From IMG/VR virus record IMGVR_UViG_3300032219_001111, positions 1-32,062 of that record: a stretch of DNA of 32,062 bases, one strand, 5' to 3'. The notes beneath the pieces were generated by a model. It was not told where the DNA came from and did not search any database. It saw only the letters and a list, made by a program, of their open reading frames with translations. Of this stretch, positions 3,655-31,183 are shown piece after piece. A program made the position numbers and the translations under genes. How positions within the stretch are numbered: position 1 is the first letter of the stretch; every line of letters starts with the position of its first letter. The stretch is from a virus. Lineage: Duplodnaviria; Caudoviricetes.

Positions 3655-3953
3655 ATCTGAGCTCATTCGGCGGCCGCGTGCCTATCGCGGGGACGGATCC
3701 CAATCAACCGATTGTGCTGGTGGATTTCCCATCGGAACAATTATTCAATACGCTGTACGAAGACATCGCCCCTGGATACACGTCGGATCAGGCGCGTAGA
3801 AAATACTGGGCGATTCTCAATGCCCGGAAAGATGGGGCGACTCTGGCTGATGCTGGCAAACCCTACGGACTAAGCCGGGAGAGGGTTCGCCAGATTGAGG
3901 CACGATTCAAGAAGCTATTGAGTCTTTGGCATTTTCCACAAGAAACTTCCTAA
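3651..3953 (+). CDS. Sigma70 region-4-like HTH protein
   Basis: TLADAGKPYGLSRERVRQIEAR resembles the sigma region 4.2 pattern TLEEVG..F.VTRERIRQIEA; start at the ATGA overlap. Confidence 0.8.
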   Translation: MNLSSFGGRVPIAGTDPNQPIVLVDFPSEQLFNTLYEDIAPGYTSDQARRKYWAILNARKDGATLADAGKPYGLSRERVRQIEARFKKLLSLWHFPQETS

Positions 3954-4746
3954 GCGAGGCAGTGGCATGGAACAGTCCGACGCGGATATGAAAATCGTTA
4001 AAGTCTTCACCGACTGTATCGGATACCCAATACGGCTTGCCTGTTTCCCGGGCGGCAGCCTCGCCGACCCCGTTGAGGTCTTTGTCTGCGACGACGACCC
4101 CGCCTTGGACCATGCCAGCCACAGCCTTTATGTTTCCTGCCGAGAAGCACACATGGATGGTGTAGCGAATCTTCATGGCTTTCATCGCGGCACGGACGCT
4201 AAGGGCCGTCGCATACCCTTCCACAAAGATGGGGACACCCTTTGCATCCAAAACAAACGATGCCCCCTTCGTCTTCTGACCGGGGAGGAACTTCTTCTTC
4301 CCTTCCTCGGTGATGAGCTGGGCTCCGACCAATCGGTTTTCCATCCGCATTGGCACAACTAAAAGCTTTTCCCCGTCGTCATCCCACACGTTCGCCATCT
4401 CATCCGGGAAACCTTTCTTCGCCAAATACGCGTGATGGGTGGATTCAGTTTGGTGCATGATCCAGCCGGCCCTCTGAGCGGCCCTACTCGCTGCTTCTAT
4501 GCGCTCTTGGTCCGCTACCCTTTGCTCGCGCTGCCAATCGATTGTGGGCGTTTTGGTGACGTCTGAGCGCCACATTTCTGGCTTGGTCATGGTCGCCCAG
4601 TTTTGAACCCAGCCAACATTACCCATCAACTTATATCTGCCGTTCCTTTTTCTGGGGTGATCTTCCGTGGGGACGGCCACCCATTTTCCAAATACAACAT
4701 GGTTCAACATCAGGCCGTAGGCCTTGGCAAAGTCTTCAAACGTCAT
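3907..4746 (-). CDS. Toprim-domain DNA primase
   Basis: IFVEGYATALS, VVVADKD and EDFND Toprim motifs, plus HAYLAKKG and LVVPM as in phage/plasmid primases. Confidence 0.88.
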   Translation of the reverse strand: MTFEDFAKAYGLMLNHVVFGKWVAVPTEDHPRKRNGRYKLMGNVGWVQNWATMTKPEMWRSDVTKTPTIDWQREQRVADQERIEAASRAAQRAGWIMHQTESTHHAYLAKKGFPDEMANVWDDDGEKLLVVPMRMENRLVGAQLITEEGKKKFLPGQKTKGASFVLDAKGVPIFVEGYATALSVRAAMKAMKIRYTIHVCFSAGNIKAVAGMVQGGVVVADKDLNGVGEAAARETGKPYWVSDTVGEDFNDFHIRVGLFHATASLRKFLVENAKDSIAS

Positions 4747-4747
4747 A

Positions 4748-6238
4748 TCAGAACCCTAGTGGTAGGCGCAGGCGCTGCGTCTTGGCGTAAGCAATCATTC
4801 GGCTCTTGATCCACTGTGCCGTGGGGCCAGTGATGGGGGAGGGGGATTCATGCAAACCCCTCGGCCACACGCCGAACTTCTCTTTGTATTTGTGTTTCGC
4901 CCAGTTGGGGTTGTAGCCCTTAGCCATCGCGTAAGAGATCAGCTCAGAATAGAACTGCTGCTTGATGTCCATCTTCGTTACGCTAGACGTCAGCTCCTCC
5001 AGCTCCCCAGCAACGGCCGAGATTTCATTCCTACGCTGCCGGACGTGACCGCAGGCGGGGCACATGTCAGCAAACTTAGGCCATAGAAACCCGCAGGATG
5101 GGCACTTCGATGCCTCCTTCTCTTTAGTGGTTGGTTCTTTCTTAGCCTTCTCGACCGTCTCGTCCAGGTCTTTGACGCCCTCGGCATAAAGCTGGTCCCA
5201 CTCATCCCTGAACCGCAGATAATTTCCAGAGTGATCCAGCCACAGGGCAAACTCTTTCGAGTGGTGGGGGCGCATGACCCGGCCCATCTGCTGGACGTGG
5301 CTCGATAGGGATTTGGAAAACGGTCTAGCCGAGACGCCGATCTTGACGTCGGGCACATCAAAACCTCTAGTCAGGATGTCTGTTGCGATCAGGCCGTGGA
5401 TCTCTGTATCCGGTCGGGCAAAGTCTTCAATGGCCTGGCGCTTGAAGTCGTCGTTATCTTTGTAGCTGACCGAAACAAAGTTATATCCATGCCGGGCAAA
5501 CTGCTGGACCAGGTCGGCCCCATGGGCTACGCCAGCACAGAACACGATGGTCTTTTCTGGTTTGCCGTAGACCTCGTGGGTCTTTTTAATCCACTCCTCA
5601 ACGATGTCCCCGGTGATCTTCATGCCACGCTCGGTGACTTCATCCTGGGCCCACTCGCCGGCGACCTTCTTTGCACCGGCCATGTCGATCTCTTTGGCGA
5701 TAAAGACTTTGAGAGGGGTCAACCAACTGTTATCAACCAGCCAGCTATTCGTTGCGCCGGTGACGACGTTTTCATAAACGTCACCCAGACCTTTGGTGAA
5801 CGGGGTGGCAGTAAGACCTATGACCGAAACGTGGGGGTTGTTCTTGATGAACGCGGTCGTTTGCTTTCTGGTGATGTGGCACTCATCCACGATCAGTAGA
5901 TTCATGCCGGGCATGTTCTCCCGCCGTTCCAGGGTCTGAGCACTACAGATCTGTATGAGCTCGGTCGGATCCCACTTCCAGTGACCCGACTGATAGACCC
6001 CGTGGGGAAGGTTGTACTTTGTTAACCGCATGCTTGTCTGGTCGACAAGGACTATGCGGTCCATCACCATGGCAGACCGTTTGCACTTCTCCCTGGCTGC
6101 CTTCATGAGGTAGATGGCTACCTCGGTCTTACCAAACCCCGTTGGGGCGTACAGCAACTGCGATTTATAGCCCTTACGAAAACCTTCCCTGAGCTCCTCG
6201 ATGACTCGCATCTGGTGCTCGCGTAGCTGCAGCTCCAT
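4748..6238 (-). CDS. Superfamily 2 DNA helicase with C-terminal Zn ribbon
   Basis: Walker A APTGFGKT, DECH, GLTATP, LTRGFDVP, QQMGRVMR, CPSC...CPAC; AGGAG RBS. Confidence 0.93.
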   Translation of the reverse strand: MELQLREHQMRVIEELREGFRKGYKSQLLYAPTGFGKTEVAIYLMKAAREKCKRSAMVMDRIVLVDQTSMRLTKYNLPHGVYQSGHWKWDPTELIQICSAQTLERRENMPGMNLLIVDECHITRKQTTAFIKNNPHVSVIGLTATPFTKGLGDVYENVVTGATNSWLVDNSWLTPLKVFIAKEIDMAGAKKVAGEWAQDEVTERGMKITGDIVEEWIKKTHEVYGKPEKTIVFCAGVAHGADLVQQFARHGYNFVSVSYKDNDDFKRQAIEDFARPDTEIHGLIATDILTRGFDVPDVKIGVSARPFSKSLSSHVQQMGRVMRPHHSKEFALWLDHSGNYLRFRDEWDQLYAEGVKDLDETVEKAKKEPTTKEKEASKCPSCGFLWPKFADMCPACGHVRQRRNEISAVAGELEELTSSVTKMDIKQQFYSELISYAMAKGYNPNWAKHKYKEKFGVWPRGLHESPSPITGPTAQWIKSRMIAYAKTQRLRLPLGF

Positions 6239-6283: not shown

Positions 6284-7123
6284 TTAAGCGGCTTTCTTCA
6301 ACTTATTTTGCAGCGACTTCACAGTATCCATCAGTTCAGCATTCCGAGATTGAAACATGTCCCGGCTTTCCCGCAGGGCGCTGTTATCAATCTCCAACAC
6401 ACGGATCTGCTGGCGTAGCTGCTCGATGGTTTCTTGCACGTCCATCTTTTCAAACTCGGTGGCATCCCACGCGCCAACAGCAATGATGTCCCTGAGCTTC
6501 TGATTCTCAGCACTCAATGCGTTGATGGTATCCGTGAGCTCATCAATGAACTCCTGCGTCTCATCAAACTTGGGCTCTTCAACAACGGGCTCAACCGGCT
6601 CCTTCTTGGGACGGCCAAGTTTTTTGGTGTTGATTTCCTTGACCTCGCCTTGCTTGGTGAACTTCTTAACCTCAGGCTCTTTCTCAGCGTCATAGATCAG
6701 GCCCGACTTCACCCGGCCAATGGTCATACTCGACACGCCGATATGCTTGGCAATCTCGGTGTTTGCCCACTTGCTCCACTCCGGGTGCTGAAGCATGAGG
6801 AGGATAACTTTGCGCTTGTCTTCGCGTGACATCGACAGGCCGCGCTTGCCGTTAGCACCGTAAGCCCAGAGCTTGGCGTCTTCCAACGTGCCGGTCTTGA
6901 GATCACACTCAATCTCGGTCTCACCGTTCTGCTTGTGCGCCATGTAGCGGTGGAACCCATCAGCCAGCCAGTGATCGCTGCCGTCGTGGAAGACGGTGAT
7001 CGGCGGGAAGATATCGCCATCTTGCAAGTGCGCCGCATACTCAGCAACAACGTCAGTGTTCAGCGATACGCGGGCTTGTGTGCCACCATCCAGGCGGATG
7101 ATGTCCATGTTCAGTTTCGTCAT
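6284..7123 (-). CDS. ParB/Srx-like N-terminal domain protein with HTH and coiled coil
   Basis: FPPITVF...WLADGFHRY (ParB-like GxHR), HTH NTEIAKHIGVSSMTIGRVK, heptad-rich C-terminus; GAGGAG RBS. Confidence 0.85.
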   Translation of the reverse strand: MTKLNMDIIRLDGGTQARVSLNTDVVAEYAAHLQDGDIFPPITVFHDGSDHWLADGFHRYMAHKQNGETEIECDLKTGTLEDAKLWAYGANGKRGLSMSREDKRKVILLMLQHPEWSKWANTEIAKHIGVSSMTIGRVKSGLIYDAEKEPEVKKFTKQGEVKEINTKKLGRPKKEPVEPVVEEPKFDETQEFIDELTDTINALSAENQKLRDIIAVGAWDATEFEKMDVQETIEQLRQQIRVLEIDNSALRESRDMFQSRNAELMDTVKSLQNKLKKAA

Positions 7124-7201
7124 GTGCTCTCCTCGTGGGCAGGCCGTTTGGTATTACTAGGTACATGCTAACAGCTTCATCTGTTGCATGTGGGGAAAAG
7201 T

Positions 7202-7450
7202 TTACAGCCCGGCCGCCGGGATGTCACTGACCTCAAGGTGGAAGCGATGCAGGAGAGCTATCTTTTCATGTAGCCGTGGGTCTATCGCCCACCCATCGAC
7301 TTCAGCCGCTGACTTTTGCGCGTTCAGCGCCTCTCGTTTCAGCAGGCTTATCTTTTCAATCGCCAGCCTCAAGTTCAGCTCTTCATCTTCAGTCAATCTC
7401 CTGTAGATCGACCGTCTATCTTTTTCCTTAAACAGCTTCTTCAGATCCAT
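7202..7450 (-). CDS. Hypothetical protein, first ORF after the structured RNA region
   Basis: 82-aa ORF on the operon strand; weak RBS. Confidence 0.5.
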   Translation of the reverse strand: MDLKKLFKEKDRRSIYRRLTEDEELNLRLAIEKISLLKREALNAQKSAAEVDGWAIDPRLHEKIALLHRFHLEVSDIPAAGL

Positions 7451-7469
7451 ATCTCTAACATCCCGCTAT

Positions 7470-7645
7470 GGTGGACGCACCTAGCCTATCCCAGGTGCGC
7501 CTTCAGCTGTATCCCTCTACGGAGCCACAGCACCCGACAGCCTTTTCGTTCCAACGGTGCTCTCTTCGCCGCCGTTTGCGAGTTCTCAGAACTATCCCAC
7601 AGTCTCGCTTATCCCCCAGCTCCTGCGGTTACCCCACAAGCTGAG
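7470..7645 (-). ncRNA. Multi-stem structured RNA (or ssDNA structure) of unknown class
   Basis: Consecutive stems on the - strand: CUCAGCU/AGCUGGG, GCGAG/CUCGC enclosing two small hairpins, AACGG/CCGUU, GCUGUG/UACAGC, and the 11-bp GGCGCACCUGG/CUAGGUGCGUC. Non-Watson-Crick pairs within stems are G-U on - and would be A-C on +. Confidence 0.65.
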
Positions 7646-7655
7646 CGGTCTGGCC

Positions 7656-7798
7656 AAAGAAAAACCCCGACACTTTGGTAGAGGCTTAGGCCCTTGGCGT
7701 TGGGCAACTCTAGGCGCAGATAGGATGCGATTTGAGTCACGCAAAGCCCCTACCAAAATATCGGGGTTCCTATCGTCGCCCGGGAGCCACCCCAGACG
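7656..7798 (-). ncRNA. Structured 5' leader: small hairpin, 25-bp helix and U-tract (attenuator-like)
   Basis: Arms 7768-7744 and 7687-7663 pair over 25 uninterrupted bp with three G-U wobbles and end in GGGGUUUUUCUUU. A 5' hairpin spans 7798-7777. Confidence 0.75.
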
Positions 7799-7803
7799 CG
7801 TGC

Positions 7804-7832
7804 ATCGTATGTCCAAATAAATCCGTTGTCAA
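7804..7832 (-). promoter_or_regulatory. Sigma70-type promoter for the leader and replication operon
   Basis: TTGACA (7832-7827), 17-bp spacer, TACGAT (7809-7804). The predicted start near 7797 coincides with the first hairpin. Confidence 0.78.
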
Positions 7833-7938
7833 CAGTCCGGTTTACTAATCAGGCTGCAGCTCGGGTTCGCGACCCCTTACTTCACCCTTTCGTCCTCGGG
7901 AAAACCCCACGCAGCCCGCTACACCGGAAGGTCACGCT

Positions 7939-8030
7939 GTCCTTTACCTAACGCCCAATCAACGGATGAGGTGCCCATTGACTCCAAATAGGGCGATAGG
8001 TTTCGGCCATTGAGGCCTCATCAGAAGGAC
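7939..8030 (-). ncRNA. Type I hammerhead self-cleaving ribozyme
   Basis: GUCCUU-CUGAUGA-GGCC(UCAAU)GGCC-GAAA-CCUA...UAGG-UA^AAGGAC. All core nucleotides are present, with a 6-bp stem I, 4-bp stem II and extended stem III. Predicted cleavage is after GUA, between 7945 and 7944. Confidence 0.93.
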
Positions 8031-8035
8031 TGTCT

Positions 8036-8058
8036 GTACTTTAACATTGTTAAAGTAC
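8036..8058. promoter_or_regulatory. Perfect 23-bp palindrome, putative operator or parS-like site
   Basis: GTACTTTAACA-T-TGTTAAAGTAC, intergenic; each strand contains an extended -10-like TGnTAAAGT. Confidence 0.7.
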
Positions 8059-8060
8059 TC

Positions 8061-8088
8061 AAAAAGACCCCCTCACGAAGAGGGGGCT
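8061..8088 (-). terminator. Rho-independent terminator of the recombination operon
   Basis: CCCCCUC-UUCGU-GAGGGGG followed by UCUUUUU, just after the stop at 8107. Confidence 0.85.
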
Positions 8089-8106
8089 GAGATTTACTTA
8101 TCGCCA

Positions 8107-8400
8107 CTAGGATGAGGCCCGCGCATTCTGACATAGTTGTGGATTGTCCAGCAATGTCTTTATGGTGTCGTTGAGAACCGACAGCTCGGTCTTCTTGTAG
8201 ACAGACCAGATCCGCTTCTCGCCGTGGATCCCGTTATGAGATCCCTGGTGGCAGTCCCGACATAAAGGAATGCACAGGTACTGCTTTTGCTGCTCGATGT
8301 GATGAGCATCACTCGGTCCAGCAGCTCCGCAAACTCCACACGGCAAAGACTTAACCTTTTGCAGGTGGCGTCTTTCAGAAGGAGTGAGCTTGTTATTCAA
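8107..8400 (-). CDS. HNH-type Zn-binding nuclease (Ref/DUF968-like)
   Basis: LPCGVCG...DAHHI...IPLCRDCH...GIHG; the TTG at 8400 overlaps the upstream stop. Confidence 0.8.
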   Translation of the reverse strand: MNNKLTPSERRHLQKVKSLPCGVCGAAGPSDAHHIEQQKQYLCIPLCRDCHQGSHNGIHGEKRIWSVYKKTELSVLNDTIKTLLDNPQLCQNARASS

Positions 8401-8626
8401 CCAGCTTGCCCTCTGCCTCAATCATCTTGGTCAGTTCGCCAAAGGTGCGGCCGCCTTCCATCTGAACGGAGTAGAGAGAGGACAACAGAGTCCTCAGCTC
8501 CATCCTTTCCTCGCGGTCGTACGAGTTATCAATCCCGGTCTCTATGAGGTTGCGCATCATGCACAGCTGCTCATACGTAACCGGAAAGCTCAAGTCGTAC
8601 AGGGTGACGTCGACGTATCGGTCCAT
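8393..8626 (-). CDS. Hypothetical protein
   Basis: GGAG RBS; coupled within the operon. Confidence 0.65.
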   Translation of the reverse strand: MDRYVDVTLYDLSFPVTYEQLCMMRNLIETGIDNSYDREERMELRTLLSSLYSVQMEGGRTFGELTKMIEAEGKLVE

Positions 8627-12509: not shown

Positions 12510-12854
12510 ATGCAGCATATCCAACTGCTCTTGCCCTGGCCGCCTTCGGTCAATCACTACTGGGGGCAATCAGGAAAAAGTCGTTTCATATCAAAGCGCG
12601 GGCAGCAATTTCGTGCGTCAGTGATAGAAGAGTGCAAAGGTGTTATGGCGCTGGAGGGAAGGCTAGCCGTGCACATCACTCTCTTCCCGCCTGATCGCAG
12701 GAAGAGGGATGTCGATAACATTTTGAAAGCCCTGCTGGATGCCTGCGAGCACGCCGGATGCTATGAGTCCGACAGTCAGATAGATGAGCTACACATTGTT
12801 CGGCGAGAGGTTAAGAAGGGTGGCGTGTGCACCATTTTGATACACACGCTCTGA
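12510..12854 (+). CDS. rusA: RusA Holliday junction resolvase
   Basis: LPWPPSVNHYW...PPDRRKRDVDNILKALLDAC...DSQI; likely start is ATG 12510. Confidence 0.92.
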   Translation: MQHIQLLLPWPPSVNHYWGQSGKSRFISKRGQQFRASVIEECKGVMALEGRLAVHITLFPPDRRKRDVDNILKALLDACEHAGCYESDSQIDELHIVRREVKKGGVCTILIHTL

Positions 12855-12857
12855 GCA

Positions 12858-12874
12858 CTATAACAATGTTATAG
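12858..12874. promoter_or_regulatory. 17-bp palindrome related to the one at 8036-8058
   Basis: CTATAACA-A-TGTTATAG shares the core TAACAWTGTTA; it lies between convergent genes. Confidence 0.6.
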
Positions 12875-15800
12875 ACCGGCTTCTTTCCGCATCTCTCGGA
12901 TGTCGTCGACCAGTTCCATCTTCTCGCGTTGGAGATCAGTGATTTCCTTGCGCCGCTGCTCGGGCGTCATGTCTAGATCCTTGGCAGTGCCTAGCTCACG
13001 GATTTCTGAGTTGATCTGACCCAAAGCGTCATTGAACTTGTTGACGTCGCGGTACATGTCTAGCAAGTCTGAGTTCTTCTCTTCGTAAGCATCAGCAGCC
13101 TTGATATCACCACGATCCATCAAGGTCTTCCACGTCTGATACTTCTCATCGACGCGCTGCTTGAGGTCGTAGAACAGATCCTCGTTAGCACGGCCAACCT
13201 CAGGTCTGATGAACCGCCCAACCACCGGAGTTTCGCGGCCAGTCAATTCAGGACGATCGCCGTTGTGTTCGCCAATAGCGTTGGAGATCCACTGAGCGGT
13301 GAAGCCTACAGAGCCAAACAAACCACGAATTAGATGGTCCGCCTCGATGGGGCTCAAGACGCGCTTGCCATCAGTGCCAGGGATTTCGGTGTAAGAACTA
13401 ATCCCCTTTGCCAGCTCTGACGTAGAGGCATCCCACTGTTCAAAGCCTTCAACGCGCTTAAGGTTTTCAGGAATAAGGCCGCGCCCAGTAAAGAAGTTAT
13501 GGTCCATGACCACTTCCATAACCGGACGCACACCGGCCGGGATTGGCTCAGGACCAAGCAGCATGTCCTTGGCCGCTTGAGACAAAGCCTTCTTCAAGCG
13601 GGTACGGTCAACCTCGTTCTTGGTGCCTTCGTTGATGATCGTGTTGTAGAGCATCTCGGGTACGGCTTTCCAGATATAGGCGGCCGAGGTGTTCATGGGA
13701 AGCTTAATCTTGGTGCCCGGCACGATGATGTTCCGCATCTTCGTCTGGTCATCAAGCTCTTCGTAATCAGGATCTCCGCCAACCAACATGCAGTACAGCA
13801 ACGTCAGGCTAGATAGCATGGCCGTTGTAATGGCCAACCTTTGCATGGCCTTAGCGCGGCTCATGCCCTTGAGGTTTCCGCCAATCAAAGCATTAGCCAG
13901 CACATCTGTTGCGTTGGCGTACGCGCTCATAAACGGAACAGTCTTGAACAAAGCCTGGGCGTAACCAGCAGACCCACGGTGCAAGAAGTTGATGACGTTG
14001 GCCGCCTGATACACGGCCTGCATCTCATCACCGGTTTCTGCAAGAACACGCTTGTACACAGCCACGCGCTGAGCCATATCGGCAGAGTCGCCAATGTGGT
14101 CAAGCATCTGAATCATGGCCGAGTAAGTATTGCGGTTCATCACCCCGATGCGACGCTTAACCGTTTCTTCTGATGTACGAGATGGACTATGGAATCCACC
14201 AATACCGGCAGCTCTAAGGATGTTGATTGTGGGCTCAATATCAACACCAGCAGCTTTGCCGGCAGGCTGAACCAAAGAGGTAACCAAGCCCTTCAACACC
14301 CCGCCAATTAACTTGTCGGGTCGCTTAACGCCGGTAACCATGGCTGCCGTTGGGGCGTCCTTCAAAACCTGTTCAATCTGGAACGCGCCCGACAAAGTGA
14401 TAGACCGGCGAACAAAGTTAGAGACCATGGCCAGTGGCTTCCACATCTCTAGGTCTAGGTTCTCCATGCCATAGATAGATGCGGCAACCAAAGGATCACT
14501 GATTTCCACCACAACCTTTTGCCCATCAATGATGAAGTTAAAGCGGTTCTTTGCTTTGTCCACCTTGGGGAAGGTCATCAACTTGCCATCAGGCGCGCGC
14601 GTGCCGTATTCATAAACAATCCGTGCAGCCGCGTAGTGGCGGATGGCGTTCATGCTCATGCGCATGACGTTCTGCGTCATGTTCTCAATGATGTTGTTGA
14701 TCGGTCGGGTGACCTTAAACACCACCAATGAGCCTTCTTCAATCGGCTGATCGATACGCACCTTGCCGTCTTCAGTAACCGAAAGAAGATCTGTGGGCAC
14801 CTTCTTGCCATCAACCTCAACGCGCAGCACCGTCGAGGCAGGAACCTCAAAAGTGTTCTGACCTTCTTTGGCCTTGAAGTCCAGGACGTCAGTAGGTGCA
14901 CCGCGTTTAAACAGTTTCTCCCGACCAATGTTGGCCAGGTTGCGAGTCGTCGACTGAAGCGGCGTGTGCGGATCTTCACCGTCTTCCATCAAACGCTGCC
15001 AGGGCACATAGTCCTTGATGTTTGACAAGGAGTTATAGCGCTCTTCTGAAAGAAGGCCAACGTCACGCCAGACCCTAAGCAAGTTTTGATTAACGGCGTT
15101 GAAGTTCTGCATGATCTCGCGCAGCTCTGGATGGCGCTTATCCAAAGCAGCAAAGTCGCGCATCTCTTGCTCCGACATCAACACGGATGATGATGCTTTC
15201 TGCACAGCATTCAAGCTGTTTTGAGCATCTGCTACCAAGTCCTTGGCGTCTTGGATTTCTTTTTCGCTTGCACCTTCATTGACAGCGCGCTCGAGATCTT
15301 CCTTGGCGCCCTCGTAAACATCCTGGCGATCGTAGAGCTCGTTCATGATGCTGATAGAACGCTTGGCCTCCAGATAACCATTGATAAGGTTAGTGGCCTT
15401 CTGGGCGCCGAGGCGGTCCTTCATGCGTTTTTCTGCTTCGTACACGCCACGCATACCAAGCTTGCGGTCAACGGCAACAAAACGATTAAACCTGGGGTCG
15501 TACGCCAAACCGCCCTGGAAGATAACTTGGATACCAATGTTGGCGCTGTGGATTGCGTTATCCAAAGCAACCGAGGCGACCGCTAGACCCTCGCTTGTAC
15601 GTAGCTGGCCGCCATAGCGATTGAAGTCGCGCGACTCCAAGCCGGCACCAAACCATACGTTCTTCATCCGGGCTGAGATCGCGGCATCAAATGCTGAATC
15701 ACCCGTATCTTTCGCAGCTTCTACCGGATCGTTGACGAAGTCTTTGAACAGCTGTTTGCCGTTCTTCCACTGGTCCAGAAGGAACGTGCCAAGCGGTTTG

Positions 15801-18800
15801 CCATCAAGCATCGGCGTGTTCGGCCGGTTGTAACGACTCAGAAGGGCGTCGTCTTCATCCTCAATGTTCTGCACCGGAGCCGTTACGTCCATGACGTAGT
15901 CGGCAAGCATGTCCTTGGTGATGCGCTCCTTGCTGCCGGTCATGATGTCGCGGAAGGTCTTGTGTACGGCGTAGTTCTCGTCGAAACCAATAACCTTTTT
16001 CAAGCCTTCAAACAGGCGACGCACTGCTGCTTTGAAGCGCTGCCAGTGACCACCCAGTTGCGCTGCCATGAGGGGCTCAGCATTGACCGCCCAGTACTCA
16101 GACGGGCTGATGTACTGGTACATCTCGTATGACGGCAGTAGGCCAATGGCTTTTTCGTAATTGGCTGTGTTTGGTTTATCAAGGAAATTCAGCACAGCCT
16201 CGAAATACTTCTGGTGCTTTTCATCTTGATGCTTTGCAATCGCCCGATCCAAAGCTTTTTGCCACTGCTCCACCATAACCACGCGCTGTTCTGGAGTCAT
16301 CATCTGCTCCAGCGTGTGGGTCAATTCATGGCGAATCGTGGATGGATTGGTTACTCCAGAGCTGGCCTTGTACAAACGCACAATGCGCTTCATCGGCAAG
16401 AACGACCCAGCCGCCCGGTCCATGCCCTCCGGCGCCTGCTTAACACTAAGCAGAAGGCCATTCAGCAGGTTGGGATACTTGTCGTACGCGGCCTTGATGA
16501 CGTTCAGCACCTCTTCGCTGATGTTGCCGTCGTCGTATTCCTTAAGAGCGCGGGCCAGGAACTGCTCCGGGCTATCGCGGCGCTCCCTGCTCATTAGCAA
16601 AGCATGTTTGAGATCAGCAGCACGCTCCAACATGCTCTTGATTATTAGCGGCTCACCAACCTGAATACGTTGCTCAGCCACCTTGCGCGGGATAGCAGCC
16701 AGGCGCTGACGCAAACTTTTCAGTTCAGACATCTGCTCTTCGCGGATCAGCGCTTCTCTTGTCACAAGCTCAACTGTGACTGGCCGTTCGGTGGGCTCGA
16801 CGTTGGCAAAGATATCTGCTTGCGTCGTATCAAACGCTCCGACGTTACTGATAGCCGACTTAATCTGTTCTGGTTCAAACGCTACAAACACACGCTGTTT
16901 GTCAAACTCAGTGCTGCTGCCAAACTCATCAAGCTCTTTGCGCATTGACTTTAGCGTCTGCTCCAGCCGCTCGCGCTTCTGTGTATAGGGCTGGCGATCT
17001 TTGCGCGGAACAGAAAACTCGTCACGCTTAGCACGCTCAACGGCGTCTTGCATGTCCGTGATGTCTTGCATCAAAGATTCATTGGCCGTTTGTTCAAACT
17101 CAATACCGTCGTAGCCTTGAGCCTTTAATTCTTTGCGCAACTCTTCTGCCGATCCTCGACCGGGCGCTTCCTCAGGCATTGGGCGGCCTGCCGCGCGGTG
17201 CATGTCACGGAGAAATTCGTTGAAGGTGCGGTAAATCTTGGGGTTCTTGATGTTGAGGTATACGGGCATCAATATGCGCCCGTACAAGCCAGCACCTTCT
17301 TGTGAGCTAGGGTTATTGGAGAACCATGACCCAACAGTGTCCATTGACACTTGCCGCCATTCCGTAGACTTCAGGCGGTCAAAAATTTTGAAGTCATCTT
17401 TCTCGGTCCCGTGGTACATCCTAATTGGATGACCTTGGGCGTCGACCAAAACGCTATCTCCAAACTCTTTCCAGAAGTTGCGGATGCCGTCTTCTGTCGG
17501 GTAGATTGGCAAGCCATCACTGTTAGTAGTGGGGCGCTTTTTTCCATTAACCACAACGGAGTCTGCCAACGCCTGTTGTGGAGCTTGCGTTTGGTCTGGT
17601 ATTTCTTGCTCATAAACAACCGTGCCATATTCGCCTGTATCAAATTCTGGAATATGGCGAACGTCAATACCGTCATAGCCCAATCTCTTCATGACGCGCG
17701 TTGAAGCACTATCAACGTACGCGTTTGTATGGGCTACTTGCTCGTATTCAGCCTTGGCTTCTTTAACTACATCTTGAATAACTTGATATATGTCTTCTAC
17801 GGTTTCCCCTTTATTGCTATAAAGGGTTCCCATCCAAATGTTGATTGCTGCTTGGCGTATATCACGTTCGCGTGTTGGAAAATCATTGACCATACGCAAG
17901 CCATCATGCAGTAGCTGCGCGTCTTTGGCGTCTCGCGGTGTGGCCAGCGTGTATTTAGACAAATCAATTTTAATGATTGGTCGATTGGCCCTTGAAGACG
18001 CTTTGATCTTTTGTTTAGACGAGTACATGTACACGCCCGTGCCAAAGTGTCCGGTGCCTCGCCCAGCCATACGCCCAAGAACGGTGTCACGCGCGTACTG
18101 TCCGTTGCCAGCGTGATAGCCAAATTCTGGCTCAGAGCCAAACTCTGGCTCAATGTTGAAATACTCTCGTTCGCCGGGCTTACCTTGACTGACTTGCTTA
18201 GTCAGGTTAGCAAGATTCTCTAATTTGTTTTCTTCTTTAACTAGCTGCAAAGCCAACGGCAAACGGCTAAGTTCTGATGCGCCAAGCGGCGTGTTAGGAC
18301 CAATTGCGTTGTATGTATTAACTATGTTCTTGAGCTCATCAACTTGACGTTGTAGCTCACGATGCTCTAAAGAATTTGGAAATTCTGATTTTTTAAGCGC
18401 GCCCTCTGCTTTGGTTACCGCTGTCCAAATTTTTTGAATTTCTGGCTTGTAGCCCTTCAACCGCTTAATACCTGCAACGCGGCTTTCTTCCATCTCCGCC
18501 GCTTCTTCCGCTTCTTCTTGCGCCTCAATCTGCGCCTCTCTACGCGCAGTCATGTCAACGACACGGGCCGCTTTTGCCTTCTTACCCCGTGACTGCTCAA
18601 TAGCATCCACTTCTTCCTTGATGGCATCGAACTCTTGCTTAGCCTCTAGGAACTGGTCATCGTTGAGCTCGCCACGACGATACGCAGCACGCGCATCCTC
18701 CATGTTCTTGTAGGCGCGGCGATACCACTCGACCACTTCGGGGTATGTCAGGCGTTCGCCGTCTAGGTTCTCAATGGCATAGGTGGGCTCTGCGCCCTTG

Positions 18801-21682
18801 AGCTCAGCCGGCTTCTCTTTCGCAACAGCCGGCTCTTGCGAGGCGAACAGGTCACCCATGCCAGACAGTTGCTGATCTGGAGTCTGACCAAGCTCAAACA
18901 AACCAACAGTTTCATCAGCACGAGCACGCTCTGCTGCCTGTTGCTCTGCCTGTCTGACTGCACCTTCTTCAGCCCGGAGGCGACGCTCTTCAGCTGCCGC
19001 TGCCTCTTCACGCGCACGGATCTCTTCTTCCGTTTCACCACGCAGGGTCAGCTCAGGAGCTTGAACACCACGAGCCTGGCGGATCTCGCCAATCAGGTCA
19101 GGGTTGGTCGACCAGTTATCCCAAGCTGCCTTAGCCTGACGCAGCTCTTGGATACGCTGATTAACAGCGTTAGGGTCACGGATGTCGATGCCCTCTGCCT
19201 TGGCGATCGCCGGGTTCTTGGCTGCACCACTGATAGCCGAGAGGCGCGTTTGGATTTCTCTTTGCTTGCGAGCCGCGACTTGTGCCATGGCTTGCGCTTC
19301 TTTCAAAGCGCTGTCGTCAAAGCCAAACATGTCCGTCGTGGTGTTGTTCTCTATGCCCAACGCCTTGACGGCTTGCATCATGTTGACCGCCATGTTGGCC
19401 GACTTGCCATCCATGACAGCCTGAAGACCCACGCCTTGTAGACGCGAGTCGTTAGGTGCGTTTAGCGCGATGAAGTACGCCGCTTCATCGGGGACTTGGT
19501 CGTTACGAATTGCGGCAACGAGCTCATCACTTCCTTGAGTTGCGACGGTGAAAGCCCTTTTGCCCGTTGCTCTTGCCAGAAGTCCTCTTGACTCGGCATC
19601 TTGCGGGTCGATCCCGGACGCTTTGAAATAGTTGACATAGTCTTTGACCTTTCCTTGTCCATCACGGATGTTCAGCTCGGCATCCAACACGGCTGCCATC
19701 TGCGGCGTGAAGCCTTGGGCCTCATCGTAAATCTGAGACGGAATAGTTTTTTCACCACTACGTCGAGCCAGATCCAAGCGGTGACGACCAGAGATGACCT
19801 CTAGGCTCCCATCGTTGCGACGCCACACTTGAATAGGAGCTACCCCACCACGCTCAAACTTGCCGCCAAGAGGCTCAACCACGCCCTTCTCATCAGCGCC
19901 CATCTTGAACTGCGGCACATCCTTGGAAAGAGTTAGATCTTTCAACGGTATAAAAACCGTTGGCAGATCTTCAGCCGACGTTTCGGTAGGCGGCTCCGGC
20001 GCCTTGGGCTCTGCCTGAATCGGCGGCATCGGCGTTTCAACAGGGGGCGCTGCACGTGTACCACCCAGCCTATCCCGGCGCTTCATGATCCGGTCAAGCG
20101 CTTCCTCTTCGCCAAACCCAGTGGCTAGGTAGCCAGTAACAAGGTTCTGCTCTTCCTCAGTCAGGTCAGCTGCTGATTCTGGAATGGTTTCTGCTGCCGA
20201 CACAATGCCGGGGATACCTTCCGTGGGCGCAGGGGCTGGCGGTTCTTCGCCAACAAATGGCTCTACCTTGCCGGGAGTTGGAGCGGCAGCTTCTTGGATT
20301 GGACCTAGCGGAGATGGTGCAACGCGCGGCTCTGTCGGTTCGGCAGCGCGACGTCCTGCCAATAGCTCAGCGCCTTTGACACCGCCCATCATCACGCCAC
20401 CCTGCATGATGGTTTGCGTCAGGGTATCGCCGGCCTGCTGCAGATAGTCTTTGAAACCAGCCTGTGGGTTCAGAGCAAAGCTGGGATATTTGTCAGCCAG
20501 GAATTGAGTGACAGTAGTGAGCTGCTCACCGGGGATCTGGCTAATGATGTACCGCGATACAGCATCGGTAGCTTCATCAAAGCTCTTTTTACCAAAAGCT
20601 TTCCTGACGCCGTTGGTCAAACCGGTCAAACCAAAACGTTCACCAAGTATTTCTGCAGCAGCAAAAACACTGGCACGCTTAGCAGCAGACTCCCGATCAA
20701 GCCCACGGCTTACGCCCTCGGTATAGTTTTGGCCAAACGATTGCACGCCCATAACGGCCAGCGGAATGACTGCTCCACCGCTAACAATCCCACCAAGAAT
20801 GCCGGGGATGTTTTGAGTCAGGCTGCTGATAGCGCCTTCAAAGTTACGCGACAGATAATCAGGGCGCTCACCAATAGCTTCAACGCGCCCAGCCGCCTGC
20901 TCTGCTCCAGCCTTTTGCGTATCAGCAAAATCAGGCGCACCAACAAAATCACCAAGCGCTTGGTTTAGACCGAGCACGCTCTGCTTGTAGCCGTAATAAC
21001 CTTTAACAGCACCACGAACCACTGGATTAAGGGTTTTGTATTGACTGGCTAGATCAAAATCAAACTTTGATTCCTTAGCCTGAGGGATCACCTCTTCCGT
21101 TGGCAAGCCTTCAATGGCGCTTTGAGCAGCCATGTTAGAAGCGGTTTGCGGAGATGCACCCTGACGTCTAGCTACGCGCTCACGAGCTTCTTTGCGTGGG
21201 TCTCCAAGATCAGAGATACGCCGAGCCATCGACCCTATTTGGGTTTCTAGACCCTTTGTGGCTGCGTCTTGCTGTTTGTATTGCTGGTCACGGTATGCAA
21301 AGTACATACCTTCCAACGTCTGCCGCTTATCTTTGGTGCGGCCGCTAATGATCTTGTCTCGCTCTTCGGGAGACAAGGCATCATATTTACGATCAAGCTG
21401 ACGCCGAGCATCTTCGCTTAGCGGCGGCGGTGATGGTTGTGTCGGCGGCACATAGTCTTCCGCACGGCCCACAACAGGAGCTGCGGGCTGGCTAGGAGAC
21501 GGGGCAAAGAAATCAGTTACCGCTGTCTTGGCGCGCTCAAGAAAGCCAGCTTCTGGCTTATCAAATTGGTCAAAAGGATTAGCCGCCTGGGCTACTGGCG
21601 CTTCATCAAACTGATCAAACGGATTTGGGGATGCCGAATCAAACTGGTCAAACGGATTTTCTTTCCGGTCCATGTCATCCAC
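12869..21682 (-). CDS. Large polyvalent (probably virion-delivered) protein: ParB-like, two ART-PolyVal-like, HExxH metallopeptidase and LPD38-like domains
   Basis: 2937 aa. APIQVW...VISGRHRL (~19960-19660); YHAG...GTGVY...GYDGI (~18122-17605); MYHGT...GSWFS...YLNIKNP...GYDGI...VAFEPEQIKS (~17560-16810); HELTH (16330-16316) with a downstream SEYWA; LPD38-like C-terminus (~13950-13200). Confidence 0.88.
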   Translation of the reverse strand: MDDMDRKENPFDQFDSASPNPFDQFDEAPVAQAANPFDQFDKPEAGFLERAKTAVTDFFAPSPSQPAAPVVGRAEDYVPPTQPSPPPLSEDARRQLDRKYDALSPEERDKIISGRTKDKRQTLEGMYFAYRDQQYKQQDAATKGLETQIGSMARRISDLGDPRKEARERVARRQGASPQTASNMAAQSAIEGLPTEEVIPQAKESKFDFDLASQYKTLNPVVRGAVKGYYGYKQSVLGLNQALGDFVGAPDFADTQKAGAEQAAGRVEAIGERPDYLSRNFEGAISSLTQNIPGILGGIVSGGAVIPLAVMGVQSFGQNYTEGVSRGLDRESAAKRASVFAAAEILGERFGLTGLTNGVRKAFGKKSFDEATDAVSRYIISQIPGEQLTTVTQFLADKYPSFALNPQAGFKDYLQQAGDTLTQTIMQGGVMMGGVKGAELLAGRRAAEPTEPRVAPSPLGPIQEAAAPTPGKVEPFVGEEPPAPAPTEGIPGIVSAAETIPESAADLTEEEQNLVTGYLATGFGEEEALDRIMKRRDRLGGTRAAPPVETPMPPIQAEPKAPEPPTETSAEDLPTVFIPLKDLTLSKDVPQFKMGADEKGVVEPLGGKFERGGVAPIQVWRRNDGSLEVISGRHRLDLARRSGEKTIPSQIYDEAQGFTPQMAAVLDAELNIRDGQGKVKDYVNYFKASGIDPQDAESRGLLARATGKRAFTVATQGSDELVAAIRNDQVPDEAAYFIALNAPNDSRLQGVGLQAVMDGKSANMAVNMMQAVKALGIENNTTTDMFGFDDSALKEAQAMAQVAARKQREIQTRLSAISGAAKNPAIAKAEGIDIRDPNAVNQRIQELRQAKAAWDNWSTNPDLIGEIRQARGVQAPELTLRGETEEEIRAREEAAAAEERRLRAEEGAVRQAEQQAAERARADETVGLFELGQTPDQQLSGMGDLFASQEPAVAKEKPAELKGAEPTYAIENLDGERLTYPEVVEWYRRAYKNMEDARAAYRRGELNDDQFLEAKQEFDAIKEEVDAIEQSRGKKAKAARVVDMTARREAQIEAQEEAEEAAEMEESRVAGIKRLKGYKPEIQKIWTAVTKAEGALKKSEFPNSLEHRELQRQVDELKNIVNTYNAIGPNTPLGASELSRLPLALQLVKEENKLENLANLTKQVSQGKPGEREYFNIEPEFGSEPEFGYHAGNGQYARDTVLGRMAGRGTGHFGTGVYMYSSKQKIKASSRANRPIIKIDLSKYTLATPRDAKDAQLLHDGLRMVNDFPTRERDIRQAAINIWMGTLYSNKGETVEDIYQVIQDVVKEAKAEYEQVAHTNAYVDSASTRVMKRLGYDGIDVRHIPEFDTGEYGTVVYEQEIPDQTQAPQQALADSVVVNGKKRPTTNSDGLPIYPTEDGIRNFWKEFGDSVLVDAQGHPIRMYHGTEKDDFKIFDRLKSTEWRQVSMDTVGSWFSNNPSSQEGAGLYGRILMPVYLNIKNPKIYRTFNEFLRDMHRAAGRPMPEEAPGRGSAEELRKELKAQGYDGIEFEQTANESLMQDITDMQDAVERAKRDEFSVPRKDRQPYTQKRERLEQTLKSMRKELDEFGSSTEFDKQRVFVAFEPEQIKSAISNVGAFDTTQADIFANVEPTERPVTVELVTREALIREEQMSELKSLRQRLAAIPRKVAEQRIQVGEPLIIKSMLERAADLKHALLMSRERRDSPEQFLARALKEYDDGNISEEVLNVIKAAYDKYPNLLNGLLLSVKQAPEGMDRAAGSFLPMKRIVRLYKASSGVTNPSTIRHELTHTLEQMMTPEQRVVMVEQWQKALDRAIAKHQDEKHQKYFEAVLNFLDKPNTANYEKAIGLLPSYEMYQYISPSEYWAVNAEPLMAAQLGGHWQRFKAAVRRLFEGLKKVIGFDENYAVHKTFRDIMTGSKERITKDMLADYVMDVTAPVQNIEDEDDALLSRYNRPNTPMLDGKPLGTFLLDQWKNGKQLFKDFVNDPVEAAKDTGDSAFDAAISARMKNVWFGAGLESRDFNRYGGQLRTSEGLAVASVALDNAIHSANIGIQVIFQGGLAYDPRFNRFVAVDRKLGMRGVYEAEKRMKDRLGAQKATNLINGYLEAKRSISIMNELYDRQDVYEGAKEDLERAVNEGASEKEIQDAKDLVADAQNSLNAVQKASSSVLMSEQEMRDFAALDKRHPELREIMQNFNAVNQNLLRVWRDVGLLSEERYNSLSNIKDYVPWQRLMEDGEDPHTPLQSTTRNLANIGREKLFKRGAPTDVLDFKAKEGQNTFEVPASTVLRVEVDGKKVPTDLLSVTEDGKVRIDQPIEEGSLVVFKVTRPINNIIENMTQNVMRMSMNAIRHYAAARIVYEYGTRAPDGKLMTFPKVDKAKNRFNFIIDGQKVVVEISDPLVAASIYGMENLDLEMWKPLAMVSNFVRRSITLSGAFQIEQVLKDAPTAAMVTGVKRPDKLIGGVLKGLVTSLVQPAGKAAGVDIEPTINILRAAGIGGFHSPSRTSEETVKRRIGVMNRNTYSAMIQMLDHIGDSADMAQRVAVYKRVLAETGDEMQAVYQAANVINFLHRGSAGYAQALFKTVPFMSAYANATDVLANALIGGNLKGMSRAKAMQRLAITTAMLSSLTLLYCMLVGGDPDYEELDDQTKMRNIIVPGTKIKLPMNTSAAYIWKAVPEMLYNTIINEGTKNEVDRTRLKKALSQAAKDMLLGPEPIPAGVRPVMEVVMDHNFFTGRGLIPENLKRVEGFEQWDASTSELAKGISSYTEIPGTDGKRVLSPIEADHLIRGLFGSVGFTAQWISNAIGEHNGDRPELTGRETPVVGRFIRPEVGRANEDLFYDLKQRVDEKYQTWKTLMDRGDIKAADAYEEKNSDLLDMYRDVNKFNDALGQINSEIRELGTAKDLDMTPEQRRKEITDLQREKMELVDDIREMRKEAGL

Positions 21683-30568: not shown

Positions 30569-31183
30569 CTACACCAACTTTTGCAGTATCGACGGCAGAA
30601 ACTTGTCCTCGCTATTCACTAACTTGGCGCAGAACCAGATCGGCAAGGTTACTCGCATTCCCTTCTTGACCTCATAGACACCGTGTTCTGCGGTCTCATC
30701 CGACGGAAAGATAACGGTCGAACCTACCTTTGGAACGCTTATGTAATCGTTGCCATGCTCCGTTTGAACAAACGTCGCTCCGCCTTCATACCCTTCGTTT
30801 AAGTAGGTGATGCTGGTAAAGATCCGGTGACGCAAGATGTCGTTGTCGCCGGAGTAACCATTGTCCTTGTGCCTTGGATGGCTCTTGCCTACTTTCCACA
30901 ACACAATCGTCGTGTGCTCAGGAAAAACAATCTGGTTAAAACACTGTTTGACTAGGCTGACTACGTTGGCTCTATGGTCTATGACCTTGCGTAGCAGCGC
31001 TTTATCTTGCAGTTCGTGCCAAACCAAAGTGTCGCCATCGTGCCAAGGCATCTTCTCGTCATCTTGGCGTTGCTCCGCACCCTTTTGAGAAATGATCAGA
31101 TCAGACAGGGCAGCGCACGTCTCCGGGTCTATGACGCCGTCAAACCTAAAGATGTGCTTGCTGCCTGTGTCAATTTGCTCCAA
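30569..31183 (-). CDS. 2OG-Fe(II) oxygenase (prolyl 4-hydroxylase-like)
   Basis: HKD (HxD)...TYLNEGYEGGAT...FPS...HGV.EV..GMRVT..IWF. Confidence 0.9.
   Translation of the reverse strand: MEQIDTGSKHIFRFDGVIDPETCAALSDLIISQKGAEQRQDDEKMPWHDGDTLVWHELQDKALLRKVIDHRANVVSLVKQCFNQIVFPEHTTIVLWKVGKSHPRHKDNGYSGDNDILRHRIFTSITYLNEGYEGGATFVQTEHGNDYISVPKVGSTVIFPSDETAEHGVYEVKKGMRVTLPIWFCAKLVNSEDKFLPSILQKLV

Follow-up and report, generated by a model that had tools for sequence, protein, structure and literature searches.

A hypervariable lock-and-key leader, likely a C4/CI-like antisense attenuator, before phage replication genes, with a hammerhead RNA and a palindrome as neighbours

How does a phage use a gap that is rich in folded RNAs and lies just ahead of its replication genes? 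The question is raised by positions 7451 to 8106 of a 32-kb viral record (32,062 nucleotides, ∼51% complete), called the window below, which encodes a ParB-like protein, a helicase, a primase, Erf, an exonuclease, RusA, an endolysin and a 2937-aa polyvalent protein. An earlier note on this DNA had read the gap as one RNA-based circuit controlling replication or lifestyle, without a match to a described system. Every element that it listed is present on the − strand at its place. The interval is a set of separable modules rather than one circuit, and it holds three separate RNA modules: a promoter–leader, a Betaproteobacteria-1 RNA and a hammerhead unit. Judged from sequence comparison and folding, the leader is likely, with appreciable room for error, a C4/CI-like antisense attenuator gating transcription into the replication region, the hammerhead RNA and a palindrome being separate neighbours.

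The sequencing runs containing the interval carry the labels freshwater, lake water or plain metagenome (the four that were compared being freshwater or lake water), and a search of catalogued genomes (annotated phages and plasmids) gave no match to this locus. The interval is framed by the following genes and signals.

8107..8421, − strand: upstream ORF, DUF968-like (phrog_1588), final gene of the upstream operon
8059..8087, − strand: intrinsic terminator closing the upstream operon (stem 8087-8067 plus U-tract)
8036..8058, no strand: 23-bp perfect palindrome with the core TAACA-N-TGTTA, a candidate protein-binding DNA site
7202..7450, − strand: 82-aa ORF without family match
6284..7123, − strand: ParB-like protein (phrog_1033)
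4748..6238, − strand: superfamily 2 helicase (phrog_16)
3907..4746, − strand: primase (phrog_2249, Toprim)

The replication genes do follow the interval, as had been noticed, but the 82-codon ORF (7450-7202) intervenes between the cluster and ParB; other DNA takes its place in close relatives. A conserved 29-nt stretch at 7164-7190, which contains an imperfect AACAG/CTGTT palindrome, is retained there though the surrounding ORF is replaced. Relatives of the ParB-like protein reach at most 39% identity in annotated phages and at most 50%, over partial segments, in GTDB genomes. Elsewhere in the window, the polyvalent protein (12869-21682, − strand) carries ART-PolyVal and LPD38 domains and is preceded by three ORFs without family match, and a 2OG-Fe(II) oxygenase gene (30569-31183, − strand) is found close to the lysis genes.

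The promoter–leader spans 7832-7657 on the − strand and is made of the following parts.

7804..7832, − strand: sigma70-type promoter, TTGACA-17-TACGAT, 10/12 matches
7767..7798, − strand: segment A, a 5′ hairpin with a GUGGC loop plus the variable ‘lock’ (A = 7793-7767)
7744..7768, − strand: 5′ arm of the long terminator helix
7691..7743, − strand: interior of the terminator junction, with hairpin a, segment B and hairpin b (GCCAA loop)
7726-7701, − strand: segment B, the variable ‘key’, inside the terminator helix
7657..7687, − strand: 3′ arm of the terminator helix plus U-tract

Segment A lies 5′ of the long helix, which joins 7768-7744 to 7687-7663 over 25 bp and is followed by the U-tract. 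The leader folds with a z-score of −6.0, and 0/200 shuffles are equally stable. Promoter, helix and U-tract are thus as the earlier note had them, and its reading of the G-U polarity is borne out in the leader family, where equal-length terminator arms contain 99 G-U against 15 A-C in favour of the − strand.

The variable parts of this leader are seen best between close relatives. Compared with L001 (ParB 91% identical), the window shows few differences, which are located in the mutually complementary segments A and B; L331 carries a third lock allele, so that three alleles exist among near-identical phages (the window, L001/L015 and L331), and contigs from four other DNA runs also differ at A and B. 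A search pattern built from five seed leaders matched at least 119 viral loci, with an estimated ∼310 IMG/VR stretches; since it derives from five seeds and covers the matches listed, the sample is limited to this leader subfamily. Together with the seeds, the matches listed give 124 leaders, 105 of them distinct, and after removal of one without U-tract 97 distinct A/B pairs. Among these, the mean duplex energy is −19.3 kcal/mol for cognate A:B and −9.7 kcal/mol for non-cognate combinations, the cognate partner being the best in 80/97 and within the top five in 96/97 (the window ranks 2). Of 51 distinct terminator scaffolds among the matches listed, 13 carry more than one A/B pair, one of them as many as 21; when the scaffold is identical, cognate beats non-cognate in 512/550 comparisons. 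Variation of A and B on an identical scaffold is what would be expected if self/non-self specificity were under selection. The terminator helix itself has 11/23 pairs altered on both sides, a level reached in 0/500 shuffles (8 sequences). This covariation shows pairing of segment A with B and a genuine terminator helix.

Folding suggests how the two helices may compete. Growing prefixes of the leader, folded by equilibrium energy minimisation rather than kinetic simulation, form a 21-bp A:B helix at 80–120 nt and the terminator from 125 nt. In the 97 leaders among the matches listed, at least eight A:B pairs are predicted before the 3′ terminator arm is made in all cases (97/97), and the predicted full-length fold is dominated by the terminator in 95/97. 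With the 5′ terminator arm enclosed by it, the A:B helix could plausibly act as a kinetic antiterminator. A −10 box stands upstream of 108/110 leaders among the matches listed, with a −35 box or TG in addition in 42. An opposite-strand promoter occurs in only 2/105 leader loci among the matches listed, with no conserved antisense promoter, so any regulator RNA would be same-strand.

The mechanism that we infer from these comparisons runs as follows. In a fresh transcript, A:B (21 bp) would form before the 3′ terminator arm exists and hold the 5′ arm in a closed loop, and polymerase could then read on into Betaproteobacteria-1 and ParB–helicase–primase. Terminated leaders of ∼140 nt would expose A and B; on accumulating, they would pair in trans with new same-lock transcripts, keep the cis A:B helix from forming and cause termination. 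Such action in trans, to which the lock diversity points, would restrain replication by negative feedback and exclude phages that bear the same lock, the likely outcome being that each phage's own small RNA would shut off transcription into its DNA-replication region.

What stands downstream of the leader fits an association with replication. Among the matches listed, with duplicate contigs included, replication genes lie downstream in 59/75 leaders that have at least 1.2 kb of downstream DNA, 54/75 being followed by a 114–152-aa protein of one cluster and 5/75 by ParB–helicase–primase; in 16/75, again among the matches listed, no replication gene lies within the available DNA. In the one cluster member that was scanned, similarity to phage replication initiators (phrog_9474, phrog_270) is confined to their C-terminal half. 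The replication-initiator-like proteins of L124:1827-2282 and relatives are only 114–152 aa long. L105 and L182 combine leader and Betaproteobacteria-1, but no obvious replication gene appears in the next 1.3 kb, and the L182 record is without this ParB–helicase–primase. The leader core is best regarded as a putative hypervariable lock-and-key attenuator before phage replication modules. When the ParB clade is taken as the starting point, 23 of 50 distinct loci have a long U-tailed helix upstream, only 10 pass the strict A:B test, and the remaining loci have different leaders. In L028, L044, L079 and L094, a different promoter–leader family, which has variable segments of its own that are complementary to each other, occupies the same position upstream of Betaproteobacteria-1. 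In L029, L039, L049, L063, L073 and L075, classic C4-like leaders with an outer helix, two hairpins and short loop complementarity stand ∼340–375 nt before ParB; where scanned, they gave no Rfam C4 match.

Between terminator and gene, the leader family carries an exchangeable folded element. In 79 leaders among the matches listed, profile searches assign this slot to Betaproteobacteria-1 in 4, to element X in 13 and to element Y in 4, and motif searches to Z1 in 43 and Z2 in 11, which makes Betaproteobacteria-1 apparently swappable with other RNAs downstream of the leader. X, Y, Z1 and Z2 are conserved folded elements of ∼200–250 nt located 20–330 nt after the leader terminator (L104-L222), and their representatives have no Rfam match. 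In the window, the slot is occupied as follows.

7532..7647, − strand: RF02932, Betaproteobacteria-1 RNA, 92.6 bits against a gathering cut-off of 49.4, full model length
7457..7531, − strand: conserved 3′ extension, with a hairpin showing R1, a second hairpin and R2
7520-7511, − strand: repeat R1, hairpin loop
7469-7460, − strand: repeat R2, 3′ edge

The multi-stem element of the earlier note is therefore this RNA (7647-7532), as the Rfam search that had been called for revealed. Betaproteobacteria-1 reportedly first came from a survey of 224 motifs. The conserved unit measures ∼190 nt and extends ∼75 nt beyond the RF02932 model. R1 and R2 are two copies of an 8–10-nt word at its end that change together between phages, with an agreement of 7.74/9 against 4.98 when shuffled (0/2000; 43 distinct Betaproteobacteria-1 and Z1 pairs, relatedness being ignored); no covarying complement is found nearby, and Z1 shares the covarying direct repeat. 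Betaproteobacteria-1 comes directly after the primase gene in L017, L243, L244, L267, L271 and L272, a linkage that is biased since all of these except L017 were found through ParB. It also follows primase in 3/7 above-cut-off matches from 151 genomes of one bacterial family, one of the three being the search centre.

ColE1 RNA II is a primer RNA. What the two would have in common is a folded RNA in which an internal segment recurs close to the 3′ end and could anchor an R-loop, and a ColE1-like primer role would fit the direct repeat. In the proposed step, the extended Betaproteobacteria-1 would help open the origin through base-pairing between the looped R1 and the template strand at R2; we hold this to be possible, with the chances somewhat against it. 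The GC skew lends the origin role no support, no switch being found at the Betaproteobacteria-1 site, and the AT-richness after R2 (18/20 and 28/31) is confounded with ribosome-binding regions. In L001:2100-2155, short tandem repeats of iteron-like appearance begin right after R2, their start being common to other runs. The main text of PMC5737381 does not name Betaproteobacteria-1.

Upstream of the leader, the hammerhead module comprises two parts.

7939..8030, − strand: type I hammerhead ribozyme, predicted cut 7945|7944, with an optional 46-nt stem III insertion
7835..7944, − strand: ∼110-nt RNA predicted to be released by the hammerhead; not in Rfam

The hammerhead (8030-7939) is complete, in agreement with the earlier note. 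It has the core CUGAUGA/GAAA, a GUA cut site and stems I–III whose pairing probability is mostly >0.9, and its descriptor has 0 matches in 300 mononucleotide shuffles of the window; the general core CUGANGA / GAAA / UH and covarying stems I–III in type I order assign it to type I. Cutting at 7945|7944 would release an independent RNA of ∼110 nt. The Rfam hammerhead models find no match in the window, and among relatives L231 reaches the Hammerhead_1 cut-off while L228, L329 and L341 stay below it; the 46-nt insertion, absent from L001, L015, L331 and run X10, probably hides the window hammerhead from Rfam. The ∼110-nt RNA contains the conserved motif ACCU-NYCGGU-GU, the core of which is paired to 7841-7836. 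A hammerhead-plus-motif pattern gave 36 distinct matches including the seeds, of which 16 are complete type I hammerheads, reduced to 13 representatives by removal of three near-duplicates. In 11/13 the motif core pairs downstream with at least 5 Watson–Crick pairs and compensatory changes (shuffle control: mean 2.1, maximum 7/13 in 1000). A second helix making this RNA a pseudoknot is weakly supported, the cognate being best in 2/13. The unit stands beside tRNA genes in 6/13, in unrelated phages, and three compact hammerhead forms lie directly before a start codon. In L224, L227, L228, L237, L239 and L329, hammerheads in phage tRNA clusters begin 0–9 nt past a tRNA 3′ end and are followed by the motif RNA. 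For the ∼110-nt RNA, Rfam returned only sub-threshold COG2908 fragments, and its reading as a second ribozyme was dropped after comparison by eye with the consensus structures of twister, pistol and HDV-like ribozymes, none of which it fits.

The phage type I hammerheads of PMC3088659 are similar in their complete consensus core, three stems, GUA cut site and intergenic position; they differ in that the present ones are followed by a conserved ∼35–150-nt RNA with a covarying long-range helix, stand beside tRNA genes in the 6/13 just given and, in the window, have the optional 46-nt stem III insertion. Passages of PMC10085705 deal with permuted hammerheads, and the main text of PMC10879173 does not mention ‘hammerhead’. 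The hammerhead itself is to all appearances ordinary; the released RNA is outside Rfam, as judged by sequence searches. Leader-family representatives have no Rfam match either. No publication was found that describes the leader family or the hammerhead-released RNA, and both may sit without function among the 8,495 IMG/VR candidates of PMC10690425 or in the supplement of PMC5737381.

Hammerhead and leader part company outside the close relatives. Of the 78 leaders among the matches listed that have at least 400 nt upstream, only those of the window's clade have a hammerhead next to them; in L026, a relative with 69% identity, the gene and the terminator ahead of the hammerhead module correspond to those of the window (the terminator as a similar, equally placed hairpin with U-tract), but ∼1.8 kb of other DNA then precedes the leader, the hammerhead being 1.9 kb away from it; and hammerheads occur without leader in unrelated phages. 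Being separable from the leader elsewhere, the hammerhead appears to be an independent hammerhead-matured RNA unit. The palindrome likewise, present as described at 8058-8036, behaves like a DNA site and not like an element of an RNA circuit. The hammerhead RNA may be transcribed from an extended −10 promoter that overlaps the palindrome. In L001 the palindrome is another one, though likewise perfect; L331 has a broken hybrid, and L026 lacks a palindrome here. The core TAACA-N(1-2)-TGTTA is present in 28/64 ParB-clade loci, 0/64 leader-search loci and 1/79 bacterial ParB-like loci (duplicates included). These features suggest a protein-binding DNA operator, which is likely, rather than an RNA element, with the ParB-like protein as a candidate binder. 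A second extended TAACA-A-TGTTA palindrome lies at 12851-12872, with its core at 12861, between the convergent RusA and giant-protein genes.

How does the leader relate to known antisense systems? RNA-mediated immunity has been described in a handful of enterobacterial phages, P4, P1/P7 and also N15; C4 acts on an a2-b2 target in antirepressor control. In P4, an RNA processed from the leader base-pairs with both seqA and seqC, halting transcription of the replication genes, and P4 CI (seqA-seqB-seqC) resembles the present leader in being a same-strand RNA of an untranslated leader, with a complementary upstream segment and premature termination before replication genes (PMC4825925). The window leader family differs from it by the lack of a seqC-type downstream target, by a 20–25-bp intrinsic terminator that encloses B, by a hypervariable A:B of ∼20–30 bp and, in near-complete relatives, by the lack of an integrase. 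With P1/P7 C4 (RF01695) and the c4-a1b1 motif (PMC2864571), it shares a long outer helix closing two hairpins and a similar loop in the upstream target hairpin (GUGUGGUAA in the c4-a1b1 rows, GUGUGGCAA in L140). The C4 model nonetheless gives no match at E ≤ 10 in the window or at E ≤ 1 in 22 related loci, and, in contrast to C4, the genes downstream are replication genes rather than an antirepressor and a second target is lacking. The pIP501 plasmid system (PMC4981023) also relies on premature termination in the leader of a replication-initiator (rep) mRNA, induced by the antisense RNAIII, but that RNA comes from an opposite-strand promoter, found here in only the 2/105 loci mentioned above.

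Two features of C4/CI systems are found in the leader family, namely an untranslated leader, close to the promoter, whose upstream target is complementary to a regulator segment, and a regulator segment within a three-way junction closed by a long helix. Others are missing. A second downstream target is not seen across 61 leaders (cognate ranks are uniform; the window ranks 2 of 13), none is consistent in three relative records and the window, and the one stronger site in G157 belongs to the opposite strand. Temperate genes (integrase, resolvase, ParA, S24 repressor) are absent in four relatives scanned, three of which are 96–100% complete, so that a lysogenic ‘immunity’ state is not evident. 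A seqC-type target of B at 7509-7484 was considered and rejected, since Betaproteobacteria-1 keeps this hairpin in phages whose leaders are different; the leader family (61 leaders, ranks uniform) does not support one either. The leader pattern occurs in 1/401 bacterial genomes, and one control match was seen. By analogy, the leader likely works like a CI/C4 attenuator, yet as a distinct variant. The claim that the cluster matches no described system is partly wrong, the multi-stem element being a known Rfam RNA and the leader having a C4/CI antisense layout.

Other readings of the leader have to be weighed against an attenuator acting in trans. It could be a switch or timer purely in cis, in which polymerase speed, a pause or a phage or host protein decides between A:B and terminator and the lock diversity is drift with compensation. 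All the covariation seen is within one molecule, no downstream target is found and the near-complete relatives are without lysogeny genes, as such a switch would have it; yet variation is concentrated in A/B, with up to 21 pairs on one terminator and three lock alleles in near-identical phages, from which a cis switch would have no obvious gain, and we consider it unlikely. Still less probable is that the leader is mainly the gene for a processed small RNA, a helix-closed junction acting on another phage or host target as C4 does on a2-b2, with A only autoregulatory and the terminator largely constitutive. Its three-way junction closed by a long helix does resemble the C4 alignment rows, the full-length fold strongly favours the terminator, and the loop of a Betaproteobacteria-1 hairpin is a match for B both in the window (rank 2 of 13) and in L001 (rank 1 of 13). 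That looped match, however, is the conserved Betaproteobacteria-1 part already rejected as a target, no covarying second target lies downstream of the 61 leaders or consistently in the three relative records and the window, and the stronger B site of G157 is on the other strand.

That the hammerhead-released RNA, running into the leader, controls the attenuator, so that everything belongs to one circuit, seems very improbable. No terminator separates the two, the order of elements is kept in the window, L001, L015 and L331, and the stem III insertion of the window has 7 nt complementary to lock A; the adjacency is nevertheless confined to the window's clade, with 1.9 kb intervening in the 69%-identity relative and hammerheads elsewhere lacking the leader, in an X3 contig the insertion goes together with another lock, and the upstream RNA leaves the predicted A:B fold unaltered. 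The single circuit that included the hammerhead is thus not supported, while RNA attenuation of replication finds support for the promoter–leader, with its covarying antiterminator and terminator and its 59/75 downstream replication genes. Co-conservation, covariation and linkage, which had been named as checks, come out the same way: A:B and the terminator covary and replication genes follow, but the hammerhead is unlinked beyond the clade.

The preferred reading, an antisense attenuator acting in trans, brings a layout related to the immunity RNAs of P4 and P1/P7 into an estimated ∼310 IMG/VR stretches. Its natural lock diversity opens specificity to direct tests and is a source of many orthogonal RNA attenuator pairs, and the tie of the leader to replication genes is a testable lead for the unexplained Betaproteobacteria-1 RNA. 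A wider picture, tentative and on balance doubtful, is that a widespread freshwater phage group, without integrase or classical repressor, runs replication from an all-RNA control cassette: the lock-and-key attenuator would define dozens of incompatibility groups and set genome copy number, and would gate an exchangeable folded RNA of ∼200 nt (Betaproteobacteria-1 or one of four uncatalogued families) that may open the origin by pairing with its own DNA, replacing the missing DNA-binding half of the initiator. If control in trans is true, it would explain how phages that show no lysogeny genes could exclude their own kind or control copy number.
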